From the IMG/VR virus record IMGVR_UViG_3300021960_000018: a stretch of DNA of 64,000 bases. The stretch is one strand, 5' to 3'. The notes under the pieces are model-generated. The model saw only the letters and a list, made by a program, of their open reading frames with translations. It searched no databases and was not told the DNA's origin. Source of the stretch: a virus. Every line of letters starts with the position of its first letter. The first letter of the stretch is position 1. Of the stretch, positions 5,018 through 29,481 are shown piece by piece. The translations under genes and the position numbers were made by a program.

Positions 5018-5885
5018 TCATGAGATAGTTGTTATATCATATTTTGGTGAGTTAGAACTGTGTAAACTTCAATTGAAATCATTTGAGGCACATGTAGAAT
5101 CCACAACAATTAATATTATTGTAAACGAACCAGATGTGCAAAGATTTATCAATGGCGTTAAACCGGTTGTTGATAGAATGGTCAATCACAAGGTAGTTTT
5201 CTGGCCAGCAACAGATATAGCAACCTTTCCTCCAATTGAGCAGACAAGATATCTTCCTCGTAATGATCCATTTATGTCATGGGATAGTGCTGTAGAATGC
5301 ATAGACACACTTCATGCTGGATATGGCTGGGTCTTACAACAAGCTTTGAAATTACTGTTTGCGCTCAAGCACAATAAAGATTACGTTGTTTGTGATACTA
5401 AAGACATTTTTATGTATCCTTGTAGTGCTTATGAACTTGACACAAAACAATATGATGATTTTGGAACAGGGTGGGAAAAGAAAAGTTTATGGACTCATCC
5501 TTTTCAAAAAGACTATTATGAAGATGTTGCCAAAAGGTTTGGCGGAGATGTAGATAGAGATACAATCAACGATTATTTAACACCACAAGTCATTCGACAC
5601 GAAGCTGTTTATAAAATTATTGAGCACTTTGGATCAAAAGAAAAATTTATTGAATGGTTTATGTCGTACAAATTTATGTCAGAATTTATTATTCATGACT
5701 ATTGTGTAAAGATATTAGGTCTTCCTGAGAAGCGTAGACAGCCAAGCAATTTTATCACTTATGATCCTAAGGTTCCGTCTGATCATAAAGTTATCAAGTT
5801 TCATAGATCAATATATGAAAGACCGGGAACCAGACACCACTGGGATAATATAGAAAACTATATCAACGGATGTTTAAAATGGTAG
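5010..5885 (+). CDS. DUF6492-like putative glycosyltransferase
   Basis: GWxxQQxLKL, DxKxxF and SEFxxx motifs; paralogous to 6468-7289. Confidence 0.55.
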   Translation: MVNHEIVVISYFGELELCKLQLKSFEAHVESTTINIIVNEPDVQRFINGVKPVVDRMVNHKVVFWPATDIATFPPIEQTRYLPRNDPFMSWDSAVECIDTLHAGYGWVLQQALKLLFALKHNKDYVVCDTKDIFMYPCSAYELDTKQYDDFGTGWEKKSLWTHPFQKDYYEDVAKRFGGDVDRDTINDYLTPQVIRHEAVYKIIEHFGSKEKFIEWFMSYKFMSEFIIHDYCVKILGLPEKRRQPSNFITYDPKVPSDHKVIKFHRSIYERPGTRHHWDNIENYINGCLKW

Positions 5886-6508
5886 AGTATACTACTGATC
5901 AAGAGATAGACCAAAGTTATAGATTTCTTGATGTAGCTTATCCTAAGGAAGATCTATTAAAAGATCTCAATTGGCATTTGACTAATAGTTACGCAGGAAC
6001 CTACACGCTATGTCCTGCACAAAGTTTTGTGCCGTGGAAAGAAAATGTTAAGTCAGAATTCTTCTTTGATTTGTATAGAAAGATAGAGAGTGTTTGGCCA
6101 CATGTAGATGAGCGATCAACTGGATACTATTATTACAAAGATGAGGGGATAGGTTTACAGCCGCACACTGATAAGCACGGAGATCATCCTGGTAAATATT
6201 ATACTTTACTGTTCCCCTTAGAAGGTCTTGGTATTCTTAGATTCTATAAAGAGAAAGAACACCTATTAAAGACTTCATATGTCGATCCGTTTTATAACAT
6301 ATATGATGATAATCCAGTTCAAGAGATAGGGTCTGTATTAATTGATAAACCCATGATATTTAATCCTACTGAAATTGTTCATGCGTTAGACATTGTTGAA
6401 CGAGAACGAAAGATCTTAATGATTAGATATCATAGTGCTCCTGATATAGATCAGTTTAAGATAATTTTTGAAGAGAGATGGAATGAAACTTTTAACGGTA
6501 ACGTGTGA
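5870..6508 (+). CDS. 2OG-Fe(II)/cupin-fold oxygenase-like protein
   Basis: PHTD...H...R arrangement. Confidence 0.55.
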   Translation: MFKMVEYTTDQEIDQSYRFLDVAYPKEDLLKDLNWHLTNSYAGTYTLCPAQSFVPWKENVKSEFFFDLYRKIESVWPHVDERSTGYYYYKDEGIGLQPHTDKHGDHPGKYYTLLFPLEGLGILRFYKEKEHLLKTSYVDPFYNIYDDNPVQEIGSVLIDKPMIFNPTEIVHALDIVERERKILMIRYHSAPDIDQFKIIFEERWNETFNGNV

Positions 6509-7289
6509 AAGGGACTTAACTTGGTTTCTTATACAATGTGAAAGTATTCAAAAATATCTAGAACCATGCACACACTATGTTATCATAAATGAAAAACAAT
6601 ATGATTTGAATTTATGGAAACAAAGAATAGAAAAATATTATACAAACCACACTTTAGTTTTTCTTAATTATGATATTAGTAATTTAGAGATTGGTTGGAA
6701 ACATCCAGAATACAATCATCAATTTTTAGATTATGAAGGGTGGGTAACGCAAATGGCTTTAAAGTATTTGGCCTTTAAAGACATTCAAGATGATTATCTT
6801 ATTTTAGATTCTAAAAATTTTTTTATTAATCATACGTCATTAAACCATTTTAAAGATCAAATCGGATCTGGTCGGACCTGTACTCTTTTACCTTGGTGGG
6901 ATGAAACAGTAAAATGTTATTCAGATTATTTTGGAAAGACTCCTAAAAAGATTCATCTATCAATAGATACTCCGTTTGTATTTCATAAAGCAATTCTTGA
7001 TCGAATATCCGATTATGATAAATTTATTGAATGGTTTATTTCTCAATCGGTTATGCCTAGCGAATTTATATTATATAATTATCTAACATCCTTTTCGGAA
7101 GAAGATATATCAAGATACAAAACCTTTTGGGATCATGATCAATTGGAACAGTATAATTTATCCGATTTGAATAATTATCTTGTGGTAGGATTTCACAGAC
7201 AGGTTATTGGTAGAATAAGTAAATACAAGATTGATGAAATCAATCAATTCTTAAAATTAAAAGGTATACATGACACCGTTTTCGTATAG
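6468..7289 (+). CDS. DUF6492-like putative glycosyltransferase
   Basis: GWVTQMALK, LDSKNFFI, TPFVFH, SEFILY. Confidence 0.6.
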   Translation: MKRDGMKLLTVTCERDLTWFLIQCESIQKYLEPCTHYVIINEKQYDLNLWKQRIEKYYTNHTLVFLNYDISNLEIGWKHPEYNHQFLDYEGWVTQMALKYLAFKDIQDDYLILDSKNFFINHTSLNHFKDQIGSGRTCTLLPWWDETVKCYSDYFGKTPKKIHLSIDTPFVFHKAILDRISDYDKFIEWFISQSVMPSEFILYNYLTSFSEEDISRYKTFWDHDQLEQYNLSDLNNYLVVGFHRQVIGRISKYKIDEINQFLKLKGIHDTVFV

Positions 7290-11848: not shown

Positions 11849-12666
11849 TACTCAATTCCTGTTATACACAATCTTGCAATATCTCGATACCTACGACGTG
11901 TTTGATAATAATCATCAGTACTGGTACCTATAAAATAAGTATCGCTAGGATTTAAATCATATTTCCAACAAACTTGTTTTTGGGTTTCTTTATATCTATG
12001 ATACATTTCATCAACTGTGAATTTGTTCATTATAGCTTTCATAATAATAGCAGCAGAATAATTAAAACACTCAACCTTTTTTAGTGGATGTAAAGTAGGA
12101 TGAGGTTTTTTGGTATACACTAGTCCACATCTTTGACCGATCAATCCAAACCCCTTACTAAAGCTAAACATTACTTGTTCAGTATTCACAGGTGCAACTA
12201 TTCTTTTAATAGGGGTTGAAGAAATATAAGCGCAATCTAAAATGATAGGCACATCGATGTTATCAAATTCAAATATGTTTCCATCGTAGCATCTTGGATT
12301 ACTAATGTACAACACGTGATCTGGTAAAAGTTCTTCTACTTGCACGCCATTGCCAGATATCATTTGTGGCCACTGATACTCGCCTTCAAAATACTGCCAT
12401 GGTCTTCTATCACTCATTCTCCAATGATTAATAGCTTCTGTAGCTCCAGATGTAACATAGGCATAAGAAAAATCTGAAAGATCTATAATACTACTTACCC
12501 ATTTTCTGTGTAGATTAATAGTATCTTCTAGATCATAACTAGCAGCCCCAGTTCCTCTTTGATAATAGCTATCCGATATTCTTATGGAATTTAGAAGATC
12601 ATATACATCGGGCCAAATTGGAGATTGAACCCATTGACTATTTTTTAACAAAGAGCTTTTCTGCAA
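11848..12666 (-). CDS. PLP-dependent fold-type-I (aminotransferase-like) enzyme
   Basis: SGATEA, SNP...G, ILDCAY, SFSKGFGLIGQRCG (PLP lysine). Confidence 0.8.
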   Translation of the reverse strand: MQKSSLLKNSQWVQSPIWPDVYDLLNSIRISDSYYQRGTGAASYDLEDTINLHRKWVSSIIDLSDFSYAYVTSGATEAINHWRMSDRRPWQYFEGEYQWPQMISGNGVQVEELLPDHVLYISNPRCYDGNIFEFDNIDVPIILDCAYISSTPIKRIVAPVNTEQVMFSFSKGFGLIGQRCGLVYTKKPHPTLHPLKKVECFNYSAAIIMKAIMNKFTVDEMYHRYKETQKQVCWKYDLNPSDTYFIGTSTDDYYQTRRRYRDIARLCITGIE

Positions 12667-13273
12667 GCCACCCTCCGGTATCCCATTTATGAAGTCTTAC
12701 ACGTCTCCAGTTGTCGTGATGATTTCTGTGAAAGCCTTCACCTGCTACAAAGAAGTTTAACCACCATTTATTAGATCCACCTTCATCGGAATGTCCATAA
12801 GTATTTAAAAGGCCAAAGCCCACCTTTGCAAATACAAATGGAATGGCCGCATACGCTAACCAAAAATATGGGCTGATCAAAAAACTAATAACATTGTGAG
12901 CCAGTAATAATTTTTTATGGTGGTTATGAAAGAAAACTAAACGTGGATTGCTATACAGATCCCTTGCATATTTCATGGGTATCTTGGGAACGTCCCAGGT
13001 TGTAGTCAATACCTTCCATCTACCAATGTATTGCCAAGCGTGGGGATCTTTTTCTGTATCACTATGCTGATGATGCATTCTGTGACTGGCTATCCACCCA
13101 ATAGGGGATCTAATATAAGCGACAGATAACATGAATAGGCCCATAACCTCAAACCACACAGGCACTTTAAACTGTCGGTGACAGTAATGACGATGTAATA
13201 AAATTGACGCTCCAAAATGAGATATAATCTGACTCCAGATTAATCCAATAATAATGATAAAAACTAATGTCAT
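12638..13273 (-). CDS. Membrane fatty-acid desaturase family protein
   Basis: His boxes HRHYCH, HRMHH, GEGFHRNHH; TM segments. Confidence 0.9.
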   Translation of the reverse strand: MTLVFIIIIGLIWSQIISHFGASILLHRHYCHRQFKVPVWFEVMGLFMLSVAYIRSPIGWIASHRMHHQHSDTEKDPHAWQYIGRWKVLTTTWDVPKIPMKYARDLYSNPRLVFFHNHHKKLLLAHNVISFLISPYFWLAYAAIPFVFAKVGFGLLNTYGHSDEGGSNKWWLNFFVAGEGFHRNHHDNWRRVRLHKWDTGGWLAEKLFVKK

Positions 13274-13926
13274 CTGCCTGCTAGTGGGTTATCCAATGCC
13301 TCTTGTAATCTCATTTCAAGATCAGTTCTAAGGGTTCTCATATTAGTATCTATACGCTCCTCTGTATCCCGCATTGTATCACGTACGTCCTTTTCTGATT
13401 CGCGGATAGTCCCTTCGACTTCCCGAATAGAAGCAGTTACATCTTTTTCCTGCTGGTTCATGTCCGCGCGCACGCCCTCGAGAGTCGCTTCAATTGAGAC
13501 CTGTGTTGCTTTAATCCTTGCCTCTGCATCTTCTAAAGATTGACCTACGCGGATTTCTAGTTCTCGCATATCTCTTTCAACTCTATCGGTCGTCTGTTCA
13601 ATGCGTAGAATATCGTCTCTTAGGCCGTTTTTAATATCGCGCGTGTACGCGATCGCTTCTTCTAGTTTAATCTCTATTTCATTATTACGAGCTTCAATAG
13701 CATCAGTATCAATATTGGCAATGATTTCTTTCATCCCCATATAGTCATTATAGACTTGGAATGCACCATAAAGTCCGCCAATAATAGAACTGATAATAGC
13801 AAAGGCTGCACCAATTGTAGTCGGCGTTACAGTAATACCAAATACTTTCATTTTGGTATTTTTAAGATTTTCTATTTCTTCTTCGAACGCTTCTGTTAGT
13901 TCGCCTAAGTCTTTATCTTCTGCCAT
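13270..13926 (-). CDS. Membrane-anchored coiled-coil protein
   Basis: One TM (IGAAFAIISSIIGGLYGAF) followed by a long heptad-rich region. Confidence 0.7.
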   Translation of the reverse strand: MAEDKDLGELTEAFEEEIENLKNTKMKVFGITVTPTTIGAAFAIISSIIGGLYGAFQVYNDYMGMKEIIANIDTDAIEARNNEIEIKLEEAIAYTRDIKNGLRDDILRIEQTTDRVERDMRELEIRVGQSLEDAEARIKATQVSIEATLEGVRADMNQQEKDVTASIREVEGTIRESEKDVRDTMRDTEERIDTNMRTLRTDLEMRLQEALDNPLAGR

Positions 13927-13928
13927 TC

Positions 13929-14378
13929 TTACTCCTCGAACTGTAAAGCCCTGAGTGCTGAGATTTCTTCTTGCAGTTTTAAAATCTCCATTTGTCTTGC
14001 TTGTAGTTCTAATTCGAATAGTCTATTACAATCGATTCTTTCTTTAGGTTTAGCACCAAGCGGAATAACGATACGAGCAAATACACCAATATCAGCGAAA
14101 GGATCTAGATATTGATCATTGTAATACCAATCACCGTTATTAATAACGCCCATTACTCCGAACTCTAGATTAGTAGCCGAACCAATAGCATTAGCACATT
14201 CTAAGTCACCGGCTCTAATCCTATCTTGCATATTATTAGTAGAGGCTTGCGGCATGCTTAAGTTAATCGCACCGCTTTGATTCGGTAATAGATTTTGTGC
14301 TATAGCCGGATCAGGGAGATTACCTGATACGCAACCTGCAATAAACATTGGTAGGATTAAACCCAAATATTTCATCAC
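13929..14378 (-). CDS. Putative lipoprotein with beta-hairpin and C-terminal coiled coil
   Basis: Lipobox IAGC; LEFGVMG...DIGVFARIVIPLG; two further Cys. Confidence 0.7.
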   Translation of the reverse strand: MMKYLGLILPMFIAGCVSGNLPDPAIAQNLLPNQSGAINLSMPQASTNNMQDRIRAGDLECANAIGSATNLEFGVMGVINNGDWYYNDQYLDPFADIGVFARIVIPLGAKPKERIDCNRLFELELQARQMEILKLQEEISALRALQFEE

Positions 14379-14746
14379 TTTTCTCCATCAATCTTAGAAC
14401 AAATAAGAGAAGCTACATTAGTAATATTATCTGCCATAGATCTGGAACAAATATATGTAATTCGATTAATGTCAGATTTTCTAAAATATAGTTTTGCTTC
14501 TATCCCTTGCCCATATTCAAGCTTTACATATCGATCAAACGATGCAAATTCAATTGGTACCCAATCTTCAGTATAAACTTCGAATTGATATCTATCAGCA
14601 TCTTCCCTACGATTAAATAGTTCTACTGTACTCATATAAATGTTATTATATGGGGTAGGAATAATCTTAAAATAGGTAGGTGTCATTTCATGAGCTGCAG
14701 CACCAGTAGAAAACATTAGTGCTGCAGCTAATAATAATTTTTTCAT
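14375..14746 (-). CDS. Exported protein, possible PapD-like pilus chaperone domain
   Basis: Sec signal ending AAA; xxPTY start, beta-rich, C-terminal Cys pair. Confidence 0.5.
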   Translation of the reverse strand: MKKLLLAAALMFSTGAAAHEMTPTYFKIIPTPYNNIYMSTVELFNRREDADRYQFEVYTEDWVPIEFASFDRYVKLEYGQGIEAKLYFRKSDINRITYICSRSMADNITNVASLICSKIDGEK

Positions 14747-14759
14747 CTTATAAGTTCCC

Positions 14760-15263
14760 TTACTGGGCGATGCACTCCGCCGTTACAATGGCCACATAGT
14801 TACCAGCAGGAAATGCTTTATCATAACCATAATTGGCTGTTGATGTTACTTTAAACCAAACCGTTCCAGCTTCAGTTAGATCGAATTCAGTCGTATTATT
14901 ATATTCAATTTTATTTGTATCGTAAGCCGACATAGCAGCATCTGTTACTTCGGCAACCTCGACTTCGCCAGTCCAAGTTACTGTATCAGATAGAGATGGC
15001 GAGCTTTGGAATTCATTTGGCCAAGAAATTTTGGCGACATATGAATCTGCCAAAGCAACATCATATCTGATCTTTGGCATTACACCACCATCTGTAGTAA
15101 CAGTAGTTAGTTCGTCTGGTGTTGGCTGTGCGTAAACACCATTGATATCTGTATGGATTGTACATTTAGATTGTACAGTTCCATAAATTGGGCTGTTATT
15201 AGCTGAAGCGGTGAGTGTTGACCCAGCCAAAACAGCAGTAACAGCAAAAACTTTTTTGAACAT
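14760..15263 (-). CDS. Exported pilin/fimbrial-subunit-like protein
   Basis: Sec signal; GTVQSKC N-terminal strand; C-terminal PAGNYVAIVTAEC (G-x-Y followed by an alternating strand). Confidence 0.55.
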   Translation of the reverse strand: MFKKVFAVTAVLAGSTLTASANNSPIYGTVQSKCTIHTDINGVYAQPTPDELTTVTTDGGVMPKIRYDVALADSYVAKISWPNEFQSSPSLSDTVTWTGEVEVAEVTDAAMSAYDTNKIEYNNTTEFDLTEAGTVWFKVTSTANYGYDKAFPAGNYVAIVTAECIAQ

Positions 15264-16153
15264 TAGTTCTCTCCGTTATTGTTTTCGTATTGTGAACGTA
15301 CCATCGCCCGGTGGTTAGCATCATTCGCTAGGCTTCTAAGTACACTCCCATTATCTGGCAATTGTGAATCCACTAATACTAAAACATCCTGATAAGTACC
15401 ACCAGGAATACTCGTAGCATAATACTGTTCAAAAGCTGGGACTGAGCCCATTTGTAATATTACTTCGGCCTGATTAATAGTTCCAGCTAATTCAGCAATA
15501 CTAGTTTTTGCATCTAGTTGCTGTTCTAACTCGGACTCTTCATCGGCATTTTCTTCCATAACAACTTGTTCTTCTTCAACATCGACTTCTTGTTCTAATT
15601 GTCTTTGAACCCATTCATTGTAATATGGATCATTGAAATCAGGATTATTTAAAAGTCCATTCTCAAGTAAGTAATCATATAAAGCCTGTTCAAATCCTGG
15701 GCATCTTGGATCATCAAGAGGTACCATACAGGTGTCATATCTGTATCTATATCTTACTGTGGCGTCAGTTACTTCACCTTCGCCTTCAGTGACTATTTCG
15801 CCATCTCCAAATCTAGTTCCTAATATACCGCCTAGCGGATCATAACCAACTATTGTATTACCAGGCAACCCACTCCAATCATCAGTGTGGGTGTAGATAT
15901 ATCCTACTGCATCATTATCCTTGTTTCTAATTGTTACCAGTAAGTCAGCATCCGGATCTTTTACTGTGGTATAACGAAATAATACACCGTCAATAACTAA
16001 CCCCGATTGTGGGGGTAGAAGATCTGGCATATACCAATAATATCCATTGACCGCGGCATTCCCAGTAACGCCAGGGATTATTTCAGAGCGCAAGGAGGAG
16101 GAGTAACAAACCACCAACAGTGGCAAGACCACCCGCAGTAGATTTAGTCTCAT
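15263..16153 (-). CDS. Exported acidic protein
   Basis: Signal-like N-terminus, beta-rich domain, C-x7-C pair; TAATG coupling to the next gene. Confidence 0.65.
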   Translation of the reverse strand: MRLNLLRVVLPLLVVCYSSSLRSEIIPGVTGNAAVNGYYWYMPDLLPPQSGLVIDGVLFRYTTVKDPDADLLVTIRNKDNDAVGYIYTHTDDWSGLPGNTIVGYDPLGGILGTRFGDGEIVTEGEGEVTDATVRYRYRYDTCMVPLDDPRCPGFEQALYDYLLENGLLNNPDFNDPYYNEWVQRQLEQEVDVEEEQVVMEENADEESELEQQLDAKTSIAELAGTINQAEVILQMGSVPAFEQYYATSIPGGTYQDVLVLVDSQLPDNGSVLRSLANDANHRAMVRSQYENNNGEN

Positions 16154-16661
16154 CGCTCATTCCTTTTAATACGCCTTCTCCCTCAGCCGGTTGATCACCA
16201 CTATTTGCCGCCCAAGCTGCTTTCGCTTCATCGCCAATTAATCCATCAAATGGACAAGGAGTTCCAGCATTCATCATAGCAGAAAATACATCTGGATCTT
16301 GACACATTACAGATACTGCAGCAACCTTCATGCCCATATCATATAGTACTTTAGCATTTTTCAATCTTAAACAGTTTTCTTCGGTAAACACCGTACCAGC
16401 GGAAATACCCAAGATCTGCGTTTGAACTGCTCCTGCCACCCCAATAGTACATAAATCCGAATTAGCAGAATTTATGGATGGGGATATAGCCGAAGGAGGT
16501 GGTGAAATAACCGTTGTAGTAGAAGTAGAGTCTACTGTGCTAGTACCGTCTGTACGAGTACAAATATAACCTTCCGGACAAGTTACCTCTTGTGCAAGAG
16601 ATGCAGATGCATACACTATACCAAATAATAGCAACGTAATCCTTAAAACATATTTAACCAT
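16083..16661 (-). CDS. Exported Cys-rich protein with C-terminal membrane anchor
   Basis: Sec signal, six Cys, GGLLLLLLAL tail. Confidence 0.7.
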   Translation of the reverse strand: MVKYVLRITLLLFGIVYASASLAQEVTCPEGYICTRTDGTSTVDSTSTTTVISPPPSAISPSINSANSDLCTIGVAGAVQTQILGISAGTVFTEENCLRLKNAKVLYDMGMKVAAVSVMCQDPDVFSAMMNAGTPCPFDGLIGDEAKAAWAANSGDQPAEGEGVLKGMSDETKSTAGGLATVGGLLLLLLAL

Positions 16662-16696
16662 TTTATTTTCCTAGAGGATTATTATTCATTCATGGC

Positions 16697-16704
16697 TATT
16701 TATA
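16697..16704 (-). promoter_or_regulatory. T4 late promoter TATAAATA
   Basis: Exact consensus just upstream of the 16661 start. Confidence 0.8.
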
Positions 16705-16723: not shown

Positions 16724-16756
16724 AAAAAAAAGGGGCAGCTTTCGCCACCCCTTTTT
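16724..16756 (-). terminator. Intrinsic terminator
   Basis: AGGGGTGGC-GAAA-GCTGCCCCT followed by a T run. Confidence 0.85.
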
Positions 16757-16775: not shown

Positions 16776-17150
16776 TTAGAACGAGAAAGCAACACCGAGT
16801 GTAATTTCGCCCATATCCATGGCATCAAGATCCCATGAAGATTTAACGTAGGCAGTGGCCATATCATTTAGACCATAGGAGGCTGAAAGATCAATGACTG
16901 GAAGCGAACCAAAAGCGTCCATAAGAACGAGTTCGTTGTCATAGACTACAACATCAGTTGAAGCAGCGAAAATAAAGCCCCAGTTGGTGTAACCAATTTC
17001 AGGGGTTACGACAACGGACATGTCACCAGCGTTGACAGTGTATTCAGCAACAGCATTAGTATTTAGCAATAGACCGGTATTACCGATTTCAGCAGCCGAA
17101 GCAGCAGAAGCGGCAAGAAGAGCAGCAGTGGTAAAAGCAGCTAGTTTCAT
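16776..17150 (-). CDS. Small outer-membrane beta-barrel (porin-like) protein
   Basis: Sec signal; amphipathic strands; C-terminal TLGVAFSF beta-signal. Confidence 0.7.
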   Translation of the reverse strand: MKLAAFTTAALLAASAASAAEIGNTGLLLNTNAVAEYTVNAGDMSVVVTPEIGYTNWGFIFAASTDVVVYDNELVLMDAFGSLPVIDLSASYGLNDMATAYVKSSWDLDAMDMGEITLGVAFSF

Positions 17151-17170
17151 TTTAGATTTCCTTAATTTAC

Positions 17171-17392
17171 TTATTTACGAGACCAGATTTCATATAGAAC
17201 CCAAACAGCGATCAGACCAACAAGGCCTTGAGAACCGAGAGCAGCAACAATAGCAGAAACGTTGCCAATGACGCTGACACCAGCGATAGATGGCATCCCA
17301 AGAACTTCCAGAACGATACCAAGAGCCAAGAGACTGACACCTAGCTCAGCAACTTGACCAATAACAGATTTAACTTTGTTTAGAACTTCCAT
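17171..17392 (-). CDS. Small membrane protein
   Basis: Two hydrophobic segments; AGGA SD. Confidence 0.7.
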   Translation of the reverse strand: MEVLNKVKSVIGQVAELGVSLLALGIVLEVLGMPSIAGVSVIGNVSAIVAALGSQGLVGLIAVWVLYEIWSRK

Positions 17393-17414
17393 ATTAGACT
17401 TCCTTTATGTTTGA

Positions 17415-17737
17415 GAAATTGGGCCCGTTCTGTTTCTAGGTGGAACCCATACCCACTTAGCAAAAAGCAGTTCTTAGGCTGCTAAAGCCAGAGGAGCAAA
17501 GTTATCGTTTGCATTTAGTTTAATTGATCTATACGCGATCATCCGGTAAACTCCACTCAATCTTCACACCTGTCGATCCTATTTCGACCCCATCATAAGC
17601 ACACCGGCAGTTAAACATGCATTCTTTTAACTAATCCGCCCTAAACTAATAATTGATTAGTACCGATGTGCTTATGGTGGAGTCGCTGGGTACCGCCCCC
17701 AGGTCCAGAATGTGTCCACGTTGCTTCAACGTTTACA
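17415..17737 (-). ncRNA. ssrA: Circularly permuted (two-piece) tmRNA
   Basis: Acceptor piece ...CTGGGGGCGGTACCCAGCGACTCCACCA ends at 17675; coding piece starts GGGGTCGAAATAGGATCGAC at 17591; tag ANDNFAPLALAA* at 17512-17474; outer ends approximate. Confidence 0.93.
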
Positions 17738-17749
17738 AACATACTTATA

Positions 17750-18328
17750 TCATATGTTGTCTAGGTTGATGATCCCCATTGGTGCAAATTCTTGATGATG
17801 TGACATTTCGGTAACCTTAGGTGCATTCTTACCTAATAGATTATCGAACAACTGTTTAACACCAAGAGTAAGATCATCTACTGAACCGTTATTATCGATA
17901 ATAAAATCAGCCATCCACGGTTCAATACTGTTGCTTTCTTTGCTTTCTTCTTTAACATGCTCTGAGCGATCGACCCAGATAGCAATGTCGAATACACCAG
18001 CATTCTTCATAAAGGTGAATTCACGCTTGTTACGAAGACCACAGTAAATATCAGACTCTTTAAAGATTTCGCGGCCAAGTCGCGTTGGGTCTTCGGCACA
18101 ATAATTTGCTATGAGAGTATACCATCTTTTACGGTGCTTATGTCTATCTTTAAAGCATTCTTCTACAGTCTTATAACCAAATTCATGCTTAAGGACCGGG
18201 AAGACGACATGTTCAGCACAGAATTCACTGGACGAACGGAAAGACATACCGTAGAACATAGCTAAAAGCTCTGCTACGGTGTCTTTACCGTGACGACCAT
18301 GACCAACCAATACAATTTTAGGATTCAT
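17750..18328 (-). CDS. Deoxynucleoside monophosphate kinase-like P-loop protein
   Basis: GHGRHGKDT P-loop; GLRNKRE; DFIIDNNGS. Confidence 0.7.
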   Translation of the reverse strand: MNPKIVLVGHGRHGKDTVAELLAMFYGMSFRSSSEFCAEHVVFPVLKHEFGYKTVEECFKDRHKHRKRWYTLIANYCAEDPTRLGREIFKESDIYCGLRNKREFTFMKNAGVFDIAIWVDRSEHVKEESKESNSIEPWMADFIIDNNGSVDDLTLGVKQLFDNLLGKNAPKVTEMSHHQEFAPMGIINLDNI

Positions 18329-18366: not shown

Positions 18367-18843
18367 TTAATTCCAACTTCCATCCCAGACATAAAAGATG
18401 TGATTGCCAATCCTACGAGAAGGCTCCATATGCGAAGCCCATTGCGGCTTTCGGATATAGTCAGCGTGGTAGAATTCAGCCCCATTTGTAATGTCGGGGT
18501 ATTTTTGATAGTATACTAGAGATGCAATTGCCTGAGCCATTTCCCAAGCTTCTGCATTGCGTGGAACATCAGATTTACCATCATGAGTCCAACTAAACTG
18601 ATTATCTTGCCAAACTACATCGCATATTGTATCTGGAAAATAAGCATTCTTAACACGATTCATAGTTACATGGGCTACTGCAATTTGACCTACTAGATTC
18701 TGGTCTCTTGCTTCGAAATAGACATTCAATGCAAGACATTCTTTATCTTGTTGAGTTTGCGCTGCCATAGCAGAAGATACGGCTGCGAATGCCATGGATG
18801 CCACAATGGAAGCATTCAGGGCAAAGGAGATTACGTTCTTCAT
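18367..18843 (-). CDS. SleB-family cell wall hydrolase (Hydrolase_2)
   Basis: CLALNVYFEAR, VAHVTMNRV, QFSW, YHA, IGNHIFY; N-terminal signal. Confidence 0.92.
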   Translation of the reverse strand: MKNVISFALNASIVASMAFAAVSSAMAAQTQQDKECLALNVYFEARDQNLVGQIAVAHVTMNRVKNAYFPDTICDVVWQDNQFSWTHDGKSDVPRNAEAWEMAQAIASLVYYQKYPDITNGAEFYHADYIRKPQWASHMEPSRRIGNHIFYVWDGSWN

Positions 18844-18869
18844 GTTTCCTGCCTCGGATTTTTATGTAA

Positions 18870-18907
18870 TATTTATATATCACAACCGATTTAGGATGTA
18901 AACCCCC
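18870..18907 (-). promoter_or_regulatory. Overlapping early (GGGGTTTACA) and late (TATAAATA, 18870-18877) promoters
   Basis: Both motifs are present upstream of the hydrolase. Confidence 0.65.
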
Positions 18908-29264: not shown

Positions 29265-29481
29265 TCACCCTGTTCAATGCATGAATATCTTGGACCAGGC
29301 ATTCCCAGTCTTCTTCTTCGTGTAGCAAAAGCTCACGATTAGCTTTAATATTATCAAGTCGTTCACGTTCCATTGTATACATGTCGCGAGACTCTTTCAA
29401 ACGGTGTACAACCATAGCATCCATAAGATCCCAAACCGCTTCGTGCTCAAGTGCTTTTGCCAATAAATCAATTACTTTCAT
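29242..29481 (-). CDS. Hypothetical protein
   Basis: ORF within a coupled run. Confidence 0.6.
   Translation of the reverse strand: MKVIDLLAKALEHEAVWDLMDAMVVHRLKESRDMYTMERERLDNIKANRELLLHEEEDWECLVQDIHALNRVIDIYGEQ

Follow-up and report, generated by a model that had tools for sequence, protein, structure and literature searches.

Pili of Gram-negative bacteria are classically assembled by chaperone-guided strand complementation, which, to our knowledge, has so far always been coupled to an usher there. In the known systems donor-strand complementation is a transient state that primes assembly. The subject of this analysis is a cassette of six genes, here termed g1 to g6, on a 64-kb stretch of viral DNA (the window) that belongs to the IMG/VR record IMGVR_UViG_3300021960_000018. 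The record is a complete genome of 157,283 bp with direct terminal repeats, and the window is its minus strand from 65545 to 129544. The reading that we favour, and hold tentatively, is that the cassette is a phage-borne, late module of six Sec-exported envelope proteins whose core is a chaperone–subunit pair resembling one half of a chaperone–usher system. A published description of this six-gene cassette was not found in the literature.

Two further described systems are relevant. The WxL/Elr pilus of Enterococcus faecalis is built by chaperone-guided donor-strand exchange without an usher (bioRxiv 10.64898/2026.10.17.759780), and therefore that chemistry can proceed without an usher. Elr is confined to Gram-positive bacteria of the Bacillota and employs a membrane-anchored DUF916/DUF3324 chaperone, WxL subunits and sortase anchoring (bioRxiv 10.64898/2026.10.17.759780). 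Curli operons have been reported in pelagimyophages and pelagipodophages, and the roles proposed for them comprise ‘sibling capture’, superinfection defence and lysis control (PMC7029224, PMC9004378, PMC9599517).

The virus under study is a marine myovirus of the T4-like kind: it encodes a capsid protein of gp23 type, a portal, a sheath, UvsX and a gp43-type polymerase. Its closest isolates, at ∼60% capsid identity, are the unclassified C48C1, Methylophilales phage Melnitz and the Pelagibacter phages HTVC008M and Mosig. Isolate phages yielded neither a nucleotide match nor a tblastn match for g3 or g4.

The predicted chaperone–subunit pair

The cassette and the two signals that precede it read as follows, in the direction of transcription:

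∼16724–16756, minus strand: intrinsic-terminator-like stem-loop, noted by direct reading (G-rich stem, GAAA loop, C-rich stem, eight T)
16697–16704, minus strand: putative T4-type late promoter, TATAAATA; g1 starts 36 nt further on
16083–16661, minus strand: g1, 192 aa; signal peptide, Ser/Thr/Pro-rich linker, four-Cys domain and C-terminal hydrophobic anchor
15263–16153, minus strand: g2, 296 aa; exported, with a beta-rich N-domain and an acidic low-complexity linker
14760–15263, minus strand: g3, 167 aa; exported beta-sandwich, candidate subunit
14375–14746, minus strand: g4, 123 aa; exported, single-domain PapD/MSP fold, candidate chaperone of g3
13929–14378, minus strand: g5, 149 aa; exported, amphipathic beta-hairpin followed by a C-terminal coiled coil
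13270–13926, minus strand: g6, 218 aa; type II protein of the inner membrane, its coiled coil in the periplasm

The g4 product was modelled by AlphaFold2 (AF2) from a 54-sequence alignment as a seven-stranded sandwich of one domain, with a predicted local distance difference test (pLDDT) of 88. The top Foldseek matches among structures of the Protein Data Bank (PDB) are the chaperone N-domains of DraB, SafB, PapD, FaeE, Caf1M, FimC and CsuC, together with MSP domains (E ∼3e-4, TMq 0.5–0.64). An exhaustive VIA-align comparison, in which the g4 alignments span ∼100 residues and the stated background is Z 7–8, gave Z 11.0 for SafB (105 aligned residues, root-mean-square deviation (rmsd) 3.0), 10.8 for FimC, 10.8 for MOSPD2-MSP, 10.2 for YadV, 9.3 for PapD, 8.8 for CsuC and 8.6 for a WxL-interacting protein (9i1y). 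Because the predicted fold matches usher-pathway chaperones in both searches, g4 is assigned to the PapD-like fold class, at the level of fold only. The initial annotation had proposed a PapD-like partner at this gene: the fold is as anticipated (Z 11.0 with SafB, 10.8 with FimC), with one domain in place of the two of usher-pathway chaperones. A 116-aa protein of Klebsiella phage Eowyn is also among the g4 fold matches in BFVD.

Beyond its signal peptide g4 lacks a transmembrane (TM) anchor; Cys100 and Cys116 are invariant, and the mature protein begins with a near-invariant His. The latter feature led to a comparison with His-brace copper proteins of the CopC, YcnI and LPMO type, which was set aside: a second conserved His was not found and GbpA gave an rmsd of 6.5.

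The g3 product is likewise modelled as a beta-sandwich (AF2 pLDDT 86.5), with residues 22–33 of low confidence or unmodelled. Foldseek returned no match at E ≤ 0.001, only weak rows for FimG, CfaB and Caf1; no VIA-align row rose above background, and an Atlas search recovered only the protein's own viral clusters. The model is best described as a generic adhesin-type beta-sandwich, not specifically a pilin. Of the pilin-like fold that had been proposed here, the immunoglobulin (Ig)-like sandwich stands and the specific likeness to pilins falls, the MSCRAMM matches at Z ∼7 being background.

Both termini of g3 are conserved. The N-terminal segment (aa 24–33) displays an i, i+2 pattern with I26, G28, V30, C34, I36 and T38, and along the C-terminal strand G154 (the 14th residue counted back from the C-terminus), Y156, V160, A162, C164 and A166 are invariant. 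The penultimate residue is Ala, as opposed to the Tyr of the pilin motif. In sequence, the two ends would fit a donor strand at the N-terminus and an acceptor strand at the C-terminus.

Co-folding of g3 and g4 gave an ipSAE of 0.68 (three runs, 0.66–0.68) versus 0.06 for the best of three controls; that mark is attained by 58 of 80 solved complexes and by two of 110 mismatched pairs, and, as the prediction tool warns of likeness to solved complexes, the value is to be read as ‘docks like’ and not as proof of binding. At least 96% of the contacts are common to the runs, and partner pLDDT is at least 87. The first strand (19–25) and the last strand (109–118) of g4 face the first (31–38) and C-terminal (157–167) strands of g3. 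The register is parallel: g4/g3 residues 112/161, 114/163, 116/165–166 and 118/166 are paired, and g4 19–25 lies along g3 35–36/166. The near-invariant Lys118 of g4 adjoins the g3 C-terminus. In silico, this is the geometry of donor-strand complementation, and the chaperone–subunit type of docking that had been proposed for the pair is indeed what the models predict. Conservation in g4 is concentrated at the predicted interface, where 11 of 26 residues are conserved versus 10 of 76 elsewhere (Fisher p 0.003); the conserved interface residues include H19, Y25, R47, D49, Y98, I115 and K118.

According to the favoured reading, g4 would act in the periplasm as a single PapD/MSP-type Ig domain that clasps g3 by strand complementation, the step that the models predict. 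The conserved and unstructured N-terminal segment of g3 (I26-G28-V30-..-C34-I36) would subsequently displace g4 and join subunits head to tail. From anatomy and co-inheritance, the four obligate partners g1, g2, g5 and g6 would serve to fix the product in the envelope or to direct it there. Among them g5, with its amphipathic hairpin and coiled coil and its place as third member of the minimal trio described below, is the best candidate for a component of the outer membrane; g6 would supply an inner-membrane coiled coil, g1 a tail-anchored, Cys-rich component and g2 an acidic one. By analogy with the curli of sister pelagiphages, the likely outcome would be an infected cell whose envelope or surface is altered shortly before lysis.

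Conservation, expression and partners of the cassette

About 30 cassette loci were compared: 18 from IMG/VR, ten binned in metagenome-assembled genomes (MAGs) and one divergent contig. A search of IMG/VR with g3 recovered the 18 loci, all of which (18/18) carry the six genes in identical order between flanks that vary. The ten further loci, on phage contigs in MAG bins of unrelated phyla, show identical order as far as each contig extends, and the divergent 5-kb contig harbours all six genes in the order g1-g2-g6-g3-g4-g5. The six genes occur jointly in every contig long enough to show them, a co-occurrence far above chance; the synteny expected among phages is borne out by strict co-inheritance across the loci compared. 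The contigs of distant g3 relatives are mostly too short to show gene context.

The families involved are large and almost wholly viral. In a collection of 5.8 billion proteins the g4 family forms 2671 clusters at 90% identity, all of ∼124 aa; for the g1 domain there are at least 7977 metagenomic clusters, all of them unnamed. Relatives of g4 longer than ∼124 aa were not found, which is weak evidence. The Atlas clusters of g3 and g5 are 87–100% viral, and a g4 scan of GTDB species genomes detected only short phage-like contigs in unrelated MAGs. Relatives of the cassette proteins carry no Pfam domain and no name beyond ‘hypothetical protein’. For the cassette proteins that were searched, sequence profiles against Pfam, NCBIfam and PDB gave coiled-coil noise only, and PHROGs returned families of ‘unknown function’ only, with no structural annotations.

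The genes are tightly packed: the overlaps measure 71 nt between g1 and g2, 1 nt between g2 and g3 and 4 nt between g4 and g5, and a gap of 13 nt separates g3 from g4 and one of 2 nt separates g5 from g6. The first overlap is conserved, as g2 starts 65–74 nt inside the 3′ end of g1 in all 18 related loci; in the window the Leu-rich membrane anchor of g1 and the signal peptide of g2 are encoded by the same nucleotides (16083–16153, minus strand) in two frames. The window contains 13 copies of the motif TATAAATA where 7.6 would be expected, an excess that is weak taken alone. Most copies lie 20–40 nt 5′ of open reading frame (ORF) starts, including those of the portal, the sheath and a SleB-like hydrolase, and by this placement the motif behaves in sequence as a T4-type late promoter. 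Of the 18 related loci, 13 retain it 35–68 nt 5′ of g1. The stem-loop with its T-run, which was absent from the output of a pattern scan for terminators, closes the unit upstream (a tmRNA and two genes for 73-aa and 124-aa products).

Downstream of g6 a convincing terminator was not found, and the g6 stop overlaps (ATGA) the start of a gene of the fatty-acid desaturase family (12638–13273, minus strand) heading a run of overlapping enzyme genes that extends to ∼8208. Transcription probably continues from the cassette into the enzyme genes in this phage; the desaturase gene adjoins the cassette in only three of the 18 related loci.

The signal peptides of g1 to g5 have canonical n-h-c organization and small-x-small cleavage sites. 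Orthologues keep these N-terminal signals, as well as the hydrophobic C-terminal tail of g1 and the one TM segment present in g6. The initial annotation had read the region as six closely packed genes under a perfect late promoter, each product bearing an export or membrane signal; the coordinates, the position of TATAAATA and the conserved signals all uphold that description.

Each partner has recognizable anatomy. g1 contains a conserved four-Cys domain (aa 70–150) that matches phrog_20531, with no Pfam or PDB match. The same domain exists as a separate exported protein in Pelagibacter podophages, myophage Mosig and roseophages, where its neighbour is often a large protein annotated as hypothetical; a lysozyme gene is close by in HTVC033P and CRP-810. 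g2 has two invariant Cys in its beta-rich N-domain and a conserved C-terminal segment ending ..V.SQY..; relatives outside the cassette were not found in Pfam, PDB or Atlas, and its ESM Atlas model is poor (pLDDT 0.36). In g5, invariant Cys61 and Cys117 bracket the amphipathic beta-hairpin, whose tip varies in length among orthologues, and a conserved coiled coil follows. This protein matches phrog_37374; in Atlas it finds viral clusters only, with a weak TolC/OEP-like shape (TM-score 0.43) that is a lead only. g6 shows one TM segment in all orthologues, which measure 148–249 aa, then a helical, heptad-rich coiled coil and an invariant C-terminal LDNPL motif; Pfam and NCBIfam gave coiled-coil noise only, and there was no match to an Rz-family PHROG. 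An identification of g6 with T4 holin T, prompted by the common length of 218 aa, was rejected given the range of orthologue lengths and the absence of a holin match in PHROGs or Pfam.

A smaller unit, centred on g5, emerges outside this phage group. A search of 300 genomes from the class of one MAG returned one chromosomal g5 match (E 1e-8), and g5 alone among the cassette proteins could be traced to distant large phages (Vibrio phage 1.081.O, E 7e-6; Klebsiella FBKp24-like phages, E ∼4e-3):

Locus 5380–6615, contig C1 at ∼714.4–715.6 kb, plus strand: bacterial trio, g5 sequence match
Vibrio phage 1.081.O, 2615–3851: putative large-phage trio, order g4–g5–g3
Klebsiella phage FBKp24, 2565–3876: putative large-phage trio, order g4–g5–g3

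The bacterial trio resides in an alphaproteobacterial chromosome of 68% G+C and consists of three translationally coupled genes for g3-like (162 aa), g4-like (131 aa) and g5-like (135 aa) proteins, amid housekeeping neighbours (ispG, a CorA-like gene, a dehydrogenase and an asparaginase). Near it, g1, g2, g6, an usher and phage genes were not found. Only g5 is significant by sequence (hidden Markov model score 36.6 bits); g3 and g4 align in register, weakly, and are not significant in hhalign. In the large phages, which are myoviruses, the g5-like protein is flanked by exported proteins of 109–123 aa and 163–168 aa whose Cys pattern and C-terminal motif recall g4 and g3; when the profiles of g3 and g4 were compared by hhalign with these neighbours in 1.081.O and FBKp24, no significant match emerged. 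The C-terminal endings of these flanking proteins read ..ITYDIECE and ..LVLTCN. In both kinds of trio g3 and g4 are assigned from their position, their size, their signal peptides and the pattern of their Cys residues. A subunit, a chaperone and g5 thus seem, on partial evidence, to make up the minimal unit, and this singles out g5 as the best candidate for a replacement of the usher.

The phage carries at 17383–17790 (minus strand) of the window a two-piece (permuted) alphaproteobacterial tmRNA with the tag ANDNFAPLALAA (Rfam alpha_tmRNA, 125 bits); short stretches of it are similar to tmRNAs of Rhodobacterales phages, and a tmRNA is reported for related phages as well (PMC9004378). Several genes near the cassette have their best relatives in Rhodobacterales phages. 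Taken with the type of tmRNA, these affinities make an alphaproteobacterium the probable host. The MAGs in which cassette phage contigs were binned bear the labels Melainabacteria, Bathyarchaeia, Methanobacteriota, Polaribacter, Saprospiraceae, Parvibaculum and Rhodobacteraceae; such binning is probably contamination and not evidence of host. The two genes between the tmRNA and the stem-loop (16776–17392, minus strand) encode a holin-like 73-aa protein with two or three hydrophobic segments and an exported, beta-rich 124-aa protein whose C-terminus, ..GVAFSF, is like those of outer-membrane barrels. Neither has a family match in Pfam or PHROGs, and only the latter is weakly kept, in three related loci. 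Further upstream, at 18367–18877 (minus strand), lies a SleB-type cell-wall hydrolase with an N-terminal signal peptide (Pfam Hydrolase_2, 1e-26; PHROG endolysin), a probable secreted endolysin, whose gene has its own TATAAATA at 18870–18877.

Alternative accounts of the cassette

Several observations weigh against the favoured reading of a chaperone–subunit module. For passage through the outer membrane, an usher, a secretin or CsgG was not found. The g4 protein has no Pfam match and no sequence likeness to PapD_N, PF00345 occurs nowhere in the genome, and its one domain of ∼105 mature residues compares with the two-domain PapD_N plus PapD_C (PF00345/PF02753) architecture. The g3 monomer is modelled confidently without a donated strand; its VIA-align matches are generic (MSCRAMM N2/N3 domains and carbohydrate-binding modules (CBMs), Z ∼6–7, all ≤7.7, within background), and chaperone–usher pilins are not among the top rows. 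Cys34 and Cys164 of g3 are invariant and might lock the terminal strands in cis. g3 is the only subunit type, paralogues not being found in the genome. The g5 lipobox (FIAGC) is confined to the copy of this phage, orthologues having ordinary signal peptides, so that the lipoprotein originally proposed holds for this copy and not for the family. Late expression leaves a short time before lysis, and the complex score may mirror likeness to solved chaperone–subunit complexes in place of binding.

Some of these points are met by a periplasmic complex that does not polymerize, a serious rival given that the genome encodes no conduit and that g3 has the look of a full ligand-binding sandwich, and one to which we assign a real but lesser probability than to the favoured reading. 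The g4–g3 complex would then be the end product or delivery form and, with g1, g2, g5 and g6, would bind or remodel a component of the host envelope (a receptor, peptidoglycan or an outer-membrane protein) with no fibre being made; superinfection exclusion, debris masking or lysis timing would be possible roles. The single subunit gene and the complete, confident g3 model nearest to ligand-binding MSCRAMM and CBM domains argue for it, as do the 57–71% identity of g3 orthologues, expected of a protein that binds a conserved host target, and the fusion of the g1 domain to a peptidoglycan-binding protein of the OmpA family, beside a lysozyme gene, in roseophage CRP-810. Yet the predicted docking copies donor-strand complementation, which elsewhere is a transient, assembly-priming state, and the strand-like N-terminal segment of g3, conserved and unstructured, calls for another partner because it lies largely outside the predicted g4 interface. 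At the other end stands a complete usher-independent donor-strand fibre system for Gram-negative envelopes, shared by phages and a few bacteria, in which a half-size chaperone, g4, would prime g3, the usher would be replaced by an outer-membrane assembly pore of oligomerized g5 hairpins bearing a coiled-coil stalk, g6, g1 and g2 would tie it to the inner membrane, and disulfide-stabilized surface fibres would appear before lysis. In this full form the proposal is rather unlikely.

An accessory lysis module, in which g6 and g5 span the periplasm as a spanin pair or gated pore and help to break the outer membrane with the other four proteins as helpers, is improbable. Similarly to the two-component spanins (lambda Rz/Rz1, T4 PseT.3/PseT.2), g6 is a type II inner-membrane protein whose N-terminal TM segment and periplasmic coiled coil give it i-spanin anatomy, g5 is an exported coiled coil with a lipobox in this phage, and both genes are late. 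The signal-peptide SleB-like hydrolase with its own late promoter and the holin-like 73-aa protein lie 0.5–2 kb upstream, and the curli pore of related phages has been proposed to serve in lysis (PMC9004378). Nevertheless, g5 differs from an o-spanin: orthologues lack the lipobox, and the gene precedes g6, reversing the usual order in which the o-spanin gene lies behind or inside that of the i-spanin. The genome moreover encodes a spanin pair elsewhere:

Genome positions 138476–138985 and 138885–139280, plus strand, outside the window: overlapped genes for a 169-aa Rz-like i-spanin and a 131-aa o-spanin

The former matches phrog_739, ‘Rz-like spanin’ (1.2e-8), and the latter has the lipobox LLAGC and matches phrog_812 (2.4e-6); g5 and this o-spanin are the only lipobox ORFs in the genome. 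With a canonical, overlapped Rz/Rz1-like pair present, g5 and g6 are not needed as spanins and a simple spanin locus is made less likely, in agreement with the initial annotation. The hydrolase is unlinked to the cassette in most loci, and the lysis account leaves unexplained the chaperone–subunit pair and the bacterial chromosome where g5 accompanies g3 and g4 without g6. Very improbable is a virion-associated or cytoplasmic location, with hydrophobic N-termini that are not export signals: the late promoter is common to structural genes, but T4-type virions assemble in the cytoplasm, five successive canonical signal peptides are conserved in orthologues, the conserved Cys pairs of the cassette proteins suggest periplasmic disulfides, and structural annotations were not found in PHROGs.

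If it is true that the favoured pair assembles something, the cassette would represent a new assembly pathway and a second marine-phage surface-fibre system besides curli, with bearing on how phages of oligotrophic alphaproteobacteria change the host surface (aggregation, superinfection, progeny lost to debris). Without polymerization, the pair would still be a compact, widespread case of a PapD-fold domain in a new periplasmic job.

Comparison with described systems

Phage curli are alike in setting: exported fibre-system genes in related marine phages, located amid oxygenase-rich accessory genes and absent from the host. The chemistry differs, with predicted Ig-fold strand complementation in the cassette and amyloid in curli, and the cassette genome lacks CsgG, CsgF and CsgA/B. 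Here CsgF (PF10614) was not found and CsgG (PF03783) appeared only below threshold; the CsgG-like match, at 29311–29427, falls in an unrelated cytoplasmic ORF of 79 aa and was dismissed. CsgG is also absent from three further cassette-bearing genomes, the positive control being its detection in HTVC008M and Melnitz. Since these two phages carry CsgG while g3 and g4 were not found in them, curli and the six-gene module may be alternatives within the phage group; Mosig shows neither.

The WxL/Elr pilus shares with the cassette the lack of an usher, and the predicted g4 fold resembles the WxL-interacting protein at fold level only. Its families are undetectable in the six proteins by Pfam, and the cassette product would face an outer membrane.

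The closest likeness is to the chaperone–usher systems (PapD-PapK, FimC-FimA/G/H, Caf1M-Caf1, SafB-SafA, CsuC-CsuA/B). Searched at E ≤ 0.1, the complete genome of 157 kb yielded no usher of family PF00577, and no cassette protein exceeds 296 aa; the system is usher-less, as had been proposed. Sequence similarity to the PapD_N, PapD_C and pilin families is lacking, g4 has one domain, g3 is not specifically pilin-like and has Ala in place of the penultimate Tyr, and the cassette, late and borne by a lytic phage, has four extra obligate partners in g1, g2, g5 and g6. In both cases, however, a PapD-fold gene adjoins the gene for an exported Ig-like subunit, the subunit has a Gly 14 residues from the C-terminus and a last strand with alternating conservation, and the chaperone, in the predicted complex, clasps that strand in parallel through its own first and last strands, with a conserved Lys at the strand end. 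What appears to travel with four unknown envelope proteins, usher-less, is a recognizable half of the usher machinery: a one-domain PapD-fold protein and its Ig-like client.

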